The notes beneath the pieces were generated by a model. That model did no database searches. It saw only the letters and a program-made list of their open reading frames with translations, and was not told where the DNA came from. A DNA stretch of 64,000 nucleotides, from sequence record OP764672.1. One strand, written 5' to 3'. Source of the stretch: Klebsiella phage VB_KpP_HS106. Positions 57,435-58,561 of this stretch are shown here, in pieces. Made by a program: the position numbers and the translations under genes. The stretch's first letter is position 1. Every line of letters starts with the position of its first letter.

Positions 57435-57656
57435 AATACACTTACGAGTGTATTTAGAACAGAAGAAGCGTGTTGCGATGTTGATTCTGTTGCCATACCC
57501 CAACAAGGTATTTTAAAACACAGGCAGTGTCCTGTTATGTACAAAGGTCTAAAAGCTGGAGTACCCTGGAACCAGAACCAGGTTATCGAACTCGGAGTAG
57601 CCCCTACTTTACAGGGGCTTATTTATAAAGATATTCAAGAGTGTTTTTATAAATAA

Positions 57657-57731
57657 GATGGGATAGCTAAACGGTGAAGCGGTAGACTGTTAATCTATGA
57701 CAGCTGGGTTCGAGTCCCAGTCCCATCGCCA
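57657..57731 (+). tRNA. tRNA-Asn (anticodon GTT)
   Basis: Acceptor gatggga/tcccatc. T-arm ctggg-ttcgagt-cccag. Anticodon loop ctGTTaa. Encoded CCA. Confidence 0.7.
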
Positions 57732-57797
57732 AATAACCCCTCTGTGTTGGTTCGATTCCAACTGGATTACTGGATGGCGACAGTAGAGGGCTAATTA

Positions 57798-57874
57798 CAC
57801 TGCATAGCTCAGTCTGGTAGAGCACCTGCTTTGGGAGCAGGGTGTCTTAGGTTCGAATCCTAATGTGGTGACCA
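57798..57874 (+). tRNA. tRNA-Pro (anticodon TGG)
   Basis: Acceptor cactgca/tgtggtg. D-arm gctc-agtctggta-gagc. Anticodon loop ttTGGga. T-arm ttagg-ttcgaat-cctaa. CCA. Confidence 0.8.
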
Positions 57875-57879
57875 AATTC

Positions 57880-57966
57880 GGGGGAATAGACCGTAGAGGT
57901 AGCGGGACAGACTGTAAATCTGTTGCCTAAGAAGCTCGGGTGGTTCAACTCCATCTTCCCCCACCA
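57880..57966 (+). tRNA. tRNA-Tyr (anticodon GTA), type II with long variable arm
   Basis: Acceptor gggggaa/ttccccc. Anticodon arm acaga-ctGTAaa-tctgt. T-arm ggtgg-ttcaact-ccatc. CCA. 87 nt. Confidence 0.75.
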
Positions 57967-57969
57967 AAT

Positions 57970-58115
57970 TACAGATATAGCTTATGAGACTCAGTAATGC
58001 AGAGTCTAAGGTAAAGCAGTCGCCCGTGGTCGAATGACCATATGCCCATTGGATGCATTCCTTTGGTGATGGCTAGGGAGTCCGTGCGTAGGTTCGAACC
58101 CTACATCTGTAACCA
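57970..58115 (+). tRNA. tRNA-like gene with about 70-nt internal insertion (interrupted or intron-containing; anticodon unresolved)
   Basis: Perfect 7-bp acceptor pairing tacagat (57970-76) with atctgta (58105-11). Canonical T-arm gtagg-ttcgaac-cctac. A-CCA end. Spacing matches its neighbours, but the total is 146 nt and the middle does not fold as a standard D/anticodon arm. Confidence 0.35.
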
Positions 58116-58121
58116 AATTTA

Positions 58122-58211
58122 GGAAGGTTGTCAGAGAGGCCGATTGTACCTGACTTGAAATCAGGAGGTGCAGAGATGCGCCCGAAGGTTCGAATCCTTC
58201 ACCTTCCGCCA
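58122..58211 (+). tRNA. tRNA-Ser (anticodon TGA), type II
   Basis: Acceptor ggaaggt/accttcc. Anticodon arm cctga-ctTGAaa-tcagg. Long variable arm. T-arm gaagg-ttcgaat-ccttc. G-CCA. Confidence 0.75.
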
Positions 58212-58214
58212 AAT

Positions 58215-58291
58215 TGGAGCATAGCCAAGTAGGTTAAGGCATCGGTCTTTGATACCGACATTCTCTGGTTCGAATCCAGATGCTCCGGCCA
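58215..58291 (+). tRNA. tRNA-Gln (anticodon TTG)
   Basis: U1-G72 acceptor tggagca/tgctccg. Anticodon arm tcggt-ctTTGat-accga. T-arm tctgg-ttcgaat-ccaga. G-CCA. Confidence 0.75.
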
Positions 58292-58302
58292 AATTGCTGA
58301 TA

Positions 58303-58374
58303 GATGAATAACGCTGAGGCATAAGCGACTCGCCCGGAAGGCAGGTATCCCAGGTTCGAATCCTGGATTCATCA
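58303..58374 (+). tRNA. tRNA, anticodon uncertain (possibly GGA; imperfect anticodon stem), no encoded CCA
   Basis: Acceptor gatgaat/attcatc. D-arm cgct/agcg. T-arm ccagg-ttcgaat-cctgg. Anticodon stem has one C-A mismatch, so the isotype is unclear. Confidence 0.5.
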
Positions 58375-58534
58375 TGTTAGACGTAACATATCAGCAACTA
58401 ACTTCCGACTCGCTACCGGAAGACCGTTAGGTAACACTAATCTCTGGGCTATCAACCCATGGGTGCCACCCTCAAATCAGTAGAGATAGTAAGTTACCGC
58501 CTGCCTCGTCTAGCAGACGTAAAATGCTTAGGAT

Positions 58535-58561
58535 GCCCCTCTTCGGAGGGGCTTTTCTTTA
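58535..58561 (+). terminator. rho-independent terminator after the tRNA cluster
   Basis: gcccctc-ttcg-gaggggc followed by ttttcttt. Confidence 0.7.

Follow-up and report, generated by a model that had tools for sequence, protein, structure and literature searches.

The window analyzed here, 64,000 nucleotides (nt) of DNA of the Klebsiella phage VB_KpP_HS106 (record OP764672.1), holds at positions 57,970-58,115, on its plus strand and within a cluster of transfer RNA (tRNA) genes, a conserved and overlooked RNA gene, referred to below as the element. Its identity and secondary structure are well supported: it is a member of a phage RNA family with two subtypes, type A (146 nt, the subtype of the window's copy) and type B (134-135 nt). 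We favor the explanation that the product of this interval is a small, tRNA-like RNA that does not decode, belonging to a phage RNA family that had escaped annotation, and that this RNA acts by tRNA mimicry, a proposition that, taken whole, stands at about even probability. The phage of the window is N4-like (genus Efbeekayvirus, Schitoviridae), with phage GADU21 its closest GenBank relative over the cluster region; a literature search found no paper describing the A+B family.

The two subtypes are tied together by a covariance model, R1, whose input was seven type B sequences, with the structure drawn by hand, and no type A sequence. R1 matches the window's element across all 135 model positions (59.4 bits, E 5e-16) and scores 53.8-63.5 bits on all type A copies, while ordinary tRNAs at the same loci reach at most 42 bits. 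The signal is far beyond chance. The element also has the hairpin within the D loop (H1), the 7-base-pair (bp) stem replacing the anticodon stem (S7) and the GUGAU-P3-UA junction at the base of the arm above S7 (P3 being the 3-bp helix between these two bulges), and it belongs to the A+B family.

Blastn of phage records retrieves the element at 91-98% identity from 12 of them: GADU21 and 11 Kuraviruses of E. coli and Shigella. The Kuraviruses are phiEco32-like podoviruses, unrelated to N4; 11 of about 100 carry type A, as a clean insertion of ~200 nt in which the element is the sole tRNA-like gene, and its flanks there share nothing with the window (SU10 and ShigP1, for example, differ by a clean ~200-nt insertion/deletion that holds the element). 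The window phage, GADU21 and one IMG/VR contig are carriers too. In Tribble, a close Klebsiella relative that lacks the element, tRNA-Tyr is followed directly by tRNA-Ser. The first member of type B is a 135-nt divergent homologue adjoining tRNA-Phe on a contig of a T5-like Klebsiella phage; it came to light when D arms with long loops were sought by pattern. About 64 Sugarlandvirus genomes contain type B (86-100% identity); the subtype is nearly universal in that genus, and its copies are never annotated as RNA. Some 80 GenBank records in all leave the element unannotated or overlay it with a spurious small open reading frame. Patterns based on the junction and the T arm yielded three true members in IMG/VR, six in the JGI metagenomes and none in the GTDB genomes (185,579 bacterial and archaeal genomes); a search of E. 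coli chromosomes and plasmids found no copy, and 30 of the 31 matches in an exact 16-mer search were chance. The element is thus an accessory gene that has moved horizontally among three unrelated lytic phage groups.

One copy is chimeric. In the Proteus phage PM135 its neighbor is an HNH homing-endonuclease gene; the 3' end of tRNA-Pro stands in place of its own, and its acceptor no longer pairs. Because its S7 matches that of type A and its loops those of type B, it has the look of an intermediate form. At this locus (L158:1902-2640) the HNH gene has taken the place of the 5' part of tRNA-Pro, and the 3' end of tRNA-Pro occurs twice, the second time fused to the 5' 110 nt of the type B-like element. 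The arrangement reads as a trace of endonuclease-linked shuffling in tRNA clusters.

The secondary structure was examined in a model-based alignment of 19 distinct sequences with 37 pairs. Standard pairs are formed in 94.9% of its cells, as opposed to 25-46% when the partners are slid by one to three columns; both sides change in 19 of the 37 pairs; and the observed covariation score was reached by none of 500 shuffles. (Counts by helix are entered in the table below; a third changing pair of S7, U-A to C-G, is counted among the mismatch pairs.) The D stem covaries in relatives (GC to AU, UA to CG), and S7 pairs fully in type B, with changes of C-G to U-A and of C-G to G.U or G-C. Type A taken alone, under the full model, is 95% paired and has one compensatory pair in each of three helices: the acceptor stem, H1 and H3, the terminal hairpin of the arm. 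The comparative structure lies at -43.9 kcal/mol and the minimum free energy (MFE) fold at -45.2. Single-sequence folding z-scores are unremarkable (-1.9 for type A, -0.9 for type B) and the MFE fold mispairs the S7 region, so the structure rests on comparison, not on energy.

Is this, then, merely what is left of a tRNA gene? A decaying, functionless pseudogene would be passed over by tRNA finders, as the element is, and left blank or papered over with spurious small reading frames in GenBank, as it has been. A pseudogene would not be expected to show compensatory change in 19 pairs, some of them inside the additions that set the element apart from a tRNA, or to keep the bases of the tertiary core, or to be preserved at 91-98% identity across unrelated phage families with unrelated flanks; and the PM135 copy, with its lost acceptor pairing and borrowed 3' end, shows what real decay looks like. 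The pseudogene reading, which the initial annotation of this stretch had entertained as an "interrupted pseudo-tRNA", is strongly disfavored: of all the explanations considered here it is the least probable.

How far is the element a tRNA? With the canonical tRNA (RF00005) it shares a 7-bp acceptor stem, a discriminator base and a CCA-compatible 3' end (in fact an encoded CCA), the T arm, a counterpart of the 26:44 contact (A.C or G.U, an isosteric switch) and a D stem with the equivalents of A14, G18G19 and A21, though the D loop bears a hairpin of 21 nt and the linker from acceptor to D stem has three nucleotides instead of two. The variable loop is 5 nt. Where the likeness ends is at the anticodon: there is no 5-bp stem with a 7-nt loop, U33 and an anticodon, and the terminal loops, 5 nt in type A and 8 nt in type B, lie ~15 bp from the D stem instead of the normal 5. 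Judged by sequence, the element is tRNA-shaped and yet would be unable to decode, the 7-nt anticodon loop being absent from both subtypes.

The extra sequence of roughly 70 nt noted in the initial annotation is real, but it comprises two additions rather than one: ~25 nt in the D loop and ~50 nt replacing the anticodon loop. Both, the D-loop hairpin (~21-25 nt) and the branched arm of ~50 nt (58026-58075), are structured and, by their patterns of change, under selection. The perfect 7-bp acceptor helix, the canonical T arm, the A-CCA end and the agactc/gagtct hairpin (H1) described in that annotation all stand where it placed them. The ggtc-gaat-gacc hairpin (H2) is also present, with its stem extended to 6 bp (gtggtc/gaccat). 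The pairing atgc...gcat, taken there for something like a D arm, is not one; the true D stem, gctt/aagc, covaries. Nor is there support for a pairing of gactc of H1 with gagtc at 58078-58082 as an anticodon stem: compensatory changes favor the local hairpin together with the stem 58019-58025/58076-58082. Of the possibilities raised at that stage, a composite tRNA-like RNA is the one that the evidence supports. At its base, with P3 and the bulges GUGAU and UA, the arm is the same in both subtypes although its distal part differs: in type A there is the additional hairpin H2, and H3 is interrupted by a UU/UU internal loop and closed by an end loop of 5 nt; in type B six unpaired nucleotides take the place of H2, and the end loop is of 8 nt. 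A check by eye of the arm junction for K-turn, sarcin-ricin and bulge-helix-bulge (BHB) motifs found no convincing match. In the H1 loop, one position is occupied by all four bases among the copies.

Table 1. The element, its parts and the transcription unit in which it probably lies (positions are those of the window; fractions are pairs with compensatory changes)
Feature	Position	Strand	Basis or remark
Probable transcription unit: promoter-like site, six called tRNAs, element, intrinsic terminator	57608-58552	+	Consensus scans and ARAGORN
Whole tRNA-like RNA gene, type A, 146 nt, first acceptor base to encoded CCA	57970-58115	+	Full-length R1 match; 91-98% identical copies in GADU21, 11 Kuraviruses and metagenome contigs
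Acceptor stem, 5' strand tacagat	57970-57976	+	Pairs with 58105-58111; 6/7, 100% of cells paired; A-U to G-C within type A
Linker AUA, 3 nt, one base more than U8-N9 of normal tRNA	57977-57979	+	Sequence; AUA or UUA in all members
D stem, 5' strand gctt, then A 57984 (A14 equivalent)	57980-57983	+	Pairs with 58014-58017; 2/4, 100% paired
H1, hairpin within D loop: 5-6 bp stem, 9-11 nt loop containing AUGCA	57987-58007	+	3/5 family-wide; A-U to G-C within type A
GGUA (equivalents of G18 G19, 58010-58011, and A21, 58013) and D stem, 3' strand aagc	58010-58017	+	GG invariant in all members; stem covaries
Position-26 equivalent A, partner C 58083 (position-44 equivalent)	58018	+	A.C in type A and some type B; G.U in other type B
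S7, 7-bp stem replacing anticodon stem, 5' strand gtcgccc	58019-58025	+	Pairs with 58076-58082; 2/8
H2, hairpin gtggtc-gaat-gaccat, type A only	58026-58041	+	100% paired in type A; U-A to U.G, tetraloop G to A variation
P3, 5' strand gcc	58044-58046	+	Pairs with ggc 58071-58073; type B equivalent gag/ctc (manual alignment)
H3, terminal hairpin of long arm, ca-tt-gga / tgcat / tcc-tt-tg	58047-58065	+	A-U to G-C compensatory change in phage XT32
GUGAU bulge (58066-58070), P3 3' strand ggc (58071-58073), UA bulge (58074-58075)	58066-58075	+	GGTGAT...TAGG same in types A and B
S7, 3' strand gggagtc; C44 equivalent (58083); 4-nt remainder of variable loop, gtgc	58076-58087	+	Comparative alignment
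T arm gtagg-ttcgaac-cctac, 5 bp and 7-nt UUCRANY loop	58088-58104	+	100% paired; 1/5 family-wide
Acceptor stem, 3' strand atctgta; discriminator A; encoded CCA	58105-58115	+	Sequence

The standard detectors are blind to all this. ARAGORN (default, -i and -ps) makes no tRNA call on the window's element; Rfam 15, searched at the gathering threshold and at E<=10 with 166, 301 and 1201 nt, gives no family for it (the best match, to tRNA-Sec at 13.8 bits, is meaningless). RF00005 scores type B at 19.9 bits against a threshold of 29, and does not match the window's element even at E<=10. Intact A and B sequences likewise draw no call from ARAGORN in default mode; with H1 removed in silico and the arm exchanged for a 7-nt loop, the cores of both are called as ordinary tRNAs. 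The initial annotation had held two outcomes to be fatal to it, two ordinary tRNAs or none in this interval, or an unrelated gene in homologous phages, and here the record is mixed: the tools find none and most close relatives lack the gene, but the carriers keep its tRNA-like ends.

That the core without its additions is called as a tRNA suggests another reading: that one or more intervening sequences are removed to yield a normal tRNA of ~76 nt. The bulges on opposite strands flanking P3, loosely like a bulge-helix-bulge, also speak for it. The details are not kind to this proposal. It would need the excision of two additions that lie apart; at 25 and ~50 nt they are far below the sizes of group I and group II introns, neither shows group I or BHB features, and Rfam detects no intron family; the bulges are of 5-6 nt around a 3-bp helix rather than in the 3-4-3 arrangement; and no splicing endonuclease is known from these hosts. 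Excision would leave different, non-canonical loops in A and B, with no conserved anticodon loop, and the helices inside the additions are under selection. ARAGORN in intron mode, one of the checks proposed in the initial annotation, finds nothing in type A, and what it calls in the type B relative is incompatible. A tRNA with a short intron, group I or BHB, is accordingly set aside as very improbable.

A somewhat better case, though still a poor one, can be made for an aminoacylated RNA with a special role in translation, as a suppressor, a frameshifter or a rescue RNA resembling transfer-messenger RNA (tmRNA). The CCA is encoded and the acceptor/T minihelix is intact; the end loop of type B, UUGGAAAC, resembles an 8-nt anticodon loop; CUA adjoins the 3' strand of S7 in both subtypes; and ARAGORN -i forces a 'Pyl(cta)' on type B. 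Yet the arm is about three times as long as an anticodon arm, the 5-nt end loop of type A is closed by a covarying pair, and these phages, going by their annotation, use the standard code. The acceptor sequence differs between the subtypes, as does the discriminator (always A in type A, but either U or A in type B), and there is no G3:U70, so that no conserved identity for charging can be seen. For tmRNA in particular, position 3:70 is C-G (type A) or U-A (type B), and ARAGORN's tmRNA search and Rfam are both negative; a short frame, GCA...UGA, runs from the H1 loop, but variants alter second codon positions and no tag reading frame is conserved among them. Other anticodon-like triplets (GUG or GUU after S7, GCA in the H3 loop, GGA in the type B loop, as well as the CUA before the S7 3' strand) are neither conserved across the subtypes nor placed in a 7-nt loop, and are put down to coincidence. 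We consider a charged RNA of this kind distinctly unlikely.

In type A the H1 loop (AUGCA, 57997-58001) and the end loop of H3 (UGCAU, 58054-58058) can form five Watson-Crick pairs, at -4.7 kcal/mol, an energy that only 0.4-0.7% of shuffled loops match. The cognate loops of type B pair through UCC/GGA at -3.1 kcal/mol, and when partners are swapped between subtypes the energy is about 0. The arm may thus fold back along the D/anticodon axis and dock on the D-loop hairpin. These loops bear on the possibility that the tRNA frame is a mere scaffold for stability and processing, and that the arm or the H1 loop is the active part, a base-pairing regulator or an aptamer for a protein or ligand outside tRNA biology. 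The payload sits exactly where synthetic tRNA scaffolds hold their cargo; the basal junction (GUGAU, UA) is the same in A and B, and the distal hairpins differ by subtype, as cargo might. But the unpaired stretches are short (5-12 nt), GUGAU and UA alone are common to both subtypes, and the H1 and H3 loops look committed to one another. A scaffold of this kind is unlikely, but it is the rival to be taken most seriously.

The tRNA mimicry that we favor is preferred because the determinants shared by the two subtypes are the tRNA core and the junction, not a single-stranded "seed". Its steps might be as follows: 1) The cluster transcript that carries the element would be cut by RNase P at the element's 5' end, and the CCA end would be trimmed as in the neighboring tRNAs. 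2) A species of ~146 nt, presumably stable because it is tRNA-shaped, would accumulate. 3) Pairing of the end loop UGCAU with the H1 loop AUGCA would close it into a compact, L-shaped particle. 4) This particle would occupy or divert a protein that recognizes the acceptor, the T arm or the elbow of tRNA, most plausibly a host antiphage tRNA nuclease or a toxin that modifies tRNA ends, for which the RNA would serve as a decoy. The element behaves like a moron, as small accessory genes added to phage genomes are called. The decoy idea derives from that behavior and from the finding that phage tRNAs counter tRNA-cleaving immunity (10.1101/2023.03.15.532788), and a decoy role would account for the passage of a small accessory gene from one lytic phage of Klebsiella or E. 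coli to another, unrelated one. A counter-defense decoy acting by tRNA mimicry is the most likely single mode of action, and a tentative one, with the chances running against it.

Several considerations count against this account. On the side of the structure, the family is small and shallow (two sequence types and one chimera), so that many of the compensatory cells go back to the single split between A and B; S7 of type A contains two non-canonical pairs, a U.U and a G.A mismatch; and the loop-loop pairing of type B on its own has p of about 0.12, which confines significance to type A. On the side of function, the divergence of acceptor stem and discriminator between subtypes leaves no visible recognition code there, a decoy must compete against the entire cellular pool of tRNA, nothing in the evidence points to a partner protein, and whatever is said here of the element beyond its secondary structure is what we infer.

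The decoy can be pictured more boldly: as a new class of mobile, RNA-only phage counter-defense gene, a self-locking tRNA decoy whose arm kisses its D-loop hairpin, which traps or blunts a tRNA-directed immune nuclease or toxin of the host and hops among T5-like, N4-like and phiEco32-like phages, probably aided by the homing endonucleases of tRNA clusters. In this full form the proposal is improbable. Were it true, it would also suggest a purpose for the fifty-year-old orphan RNAs of T4 and T5; and a decoy for tRNA-targeting immunity would matter in choosing and engineering therapeutic phages of Klebsiella and E. coli.

Since the 1970s, phage tRNA clusters have been recognized as a source of stable, tRNA-like RNAs alongside the tRNAs, none with an assigned function. 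By the marks of such cluster RNAs (a place inside a phage tRNA cluster, on the tRNA strand, a size in the 120-145 nt class, an acceptor-like stem and a T arm, no decoding) the element is one of them. The T5 record NC_005859 lists RNA1 (144 nt) and RNA2 (125 nt), T5s03 and T5s06, inside the tRNA cluster as 'tRNA-like stable RNA with unknown functions'. Like the element they come from the tRNA cluster of a lytic coliphage, at 125-144 nt, and combine an acceptor-like stem with a canonical T arm and, on the T5 side in MFE folds only, a long irregular arm at the place of the anticodon arm. Unlike the element, RNA1 ends in AAU and RNA2 in ACA, not in an encoded CCA, and no hairpin in the D loop, GUGAU junction or complementary pair of loops was seen in either; R1, run with filters off, gives them 16.6 and 9.7 bits, in the range of ordinary tRNAs, as against at least 53.8 for the family. 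T4 supplies RNAC (species 1 RNA) and RNAD (species 2 RNA), small stable RNAs from its tRNA region whose roles are still unexplained (PMC3014915, PMC9697503). RNAC resembles the element in its T arm, its acceptor-like stem and the long interior arms of its predicted folds; it differs in the U.U mismatches of the acceptor stem, in lacking an encoded CCA and in its interior, and its R1 score of 22.2 bits reflects generic tRNA likeness. Blastn finds no match of T4 or T5 to the element. Because R1 scores these RNAs as tRNA-like only, and blastn provides no link, the element constitutes a separate family with its own architecture, though of the same kind as the T4 and T5 RNAs: RNA1, RNA2 and RNAC are analogous to it and not detectably homologous, and RNAD gave no sign of homology either.

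Other RNAs make use of the tRNA frame outside decoding. The Y RNA-like YrlA (RF02553) and the tRNA-like domain of tmRNA are non-decoding RNAs that reuse a module of T arm, D arm and acceptor to engage tRNA enzymes. The termini of YrlA lie in the Ro-binding stem and those of the element in the acceptor stem, and RF02553 does not match the element; its sole weak match (23 bits against 69) falls on other sequence, at 57745-57823. H2 resembles a Ro-binding site (UGGUC/GACCA), but H2 is missing from type B and this likeness is therefore not a feature of the family. tmRNA requires G3:U70, a tag reading frame and pseudoknots, and neither the tmRNA search nor the Rfam models match the element. In engineered tRNA scaffolds, which are man-made and unrelated to the element in sequence, cargo replaces the anticodon arm for the sake of stability. 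The 'tRNA-Other' of Bacillus cereus, a non-translating pseudo-tRNA with a cellular effect (PMC3399842), is like the element in being tRNA-shaped and outside decoding, unlike it in having the normal size of a cloverleaf, being chromosomal and being unrelated in sequence.

The A+B family, with its two subtypes and covariation-supported structure, offers a comparative handle on the old problem of the T4 and T5 stable RNAs. Natural pairs of phages with and without the gene exist in three easily grown groups, Kuravirus, the Klebsiella N4-like phages and Sugarlandvirus, and where the ~200-nt insertion carries the element as its only payload any phenotype is assignable to the RNA itself. Tools for finding tRNAs and pipelines for annotating phages silently miss genes of this sort.

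The setting of the element in the window is orderly. ARAGORN finds six tRNAs on the plus strand within 57657-58374: Asn, Pro, Tyr, Ser-UGA, Gln and an odd 'Ser-GGA' of 72 nt; the element occupies the 155-nt gap that separates tRNA-Tyr from tRNA-Ser. The cluster tRNAs finish in an encoded CCA followed by AAT(T), and the element has a matching ending. Consensus scans place a promoter-like site just upstream of the cluster (57608-57635) and a strong intrinsic terminator just downstream (58535-58552), and the element is probably transcribed together with the tRNAs. The coding potential of the region is confined to short open reading frames that overlap tRNAs. The same junction of CCA with AAT(T) is common to otherwise unrelated clusters, that of the window (57657-58374) and those of T4 (L038) and a Sugarlandvirus (L047), where it could have two uses, as a signal for processing and as microhomology by which gene cassettes are swapped.

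Where GADU21 and Tribble have tRNA-Asp, the window has an unrelated piece of 66 nt (57732-57797), with a T-arm-like hairpin, gttgg-ttcgatt-ccaac, inside ccctct/agaggg; no tool gives a tRNA call for it. The 'tRNA-Ser(gga)' at 58303-58374, 72 nt long, has neither a long variable arm nor an encoded CCA, its anticodon stem is mismatched and its Rfam score is weak (34.5 bits); it may be another non-standard tRNA-like gene. The D-arm pattern search that yielded the first type B member also retrieved two unrelated phage tRNA-like genes (L066:3305-3393 and L041:3038-3127, one of them on a contig of a 350-kb jumbo phage) whose D loops carry an inserted hairpin (TAGCTTA-hairpin-GGTAAAGCA); neither is called by ARAGORN, and D-loop hairpins may be a wider habit of such genes. 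Upstream of the inserted element in Kuravirus ShigP1 (L002:1144-1500) lies a non-coding stretch of ~350 nt that is conserved both in Kuraviruses that have the element and in those that lack it; GC-rich hairpins occur in this stretch, gggaggattcgtcccctccc among them.

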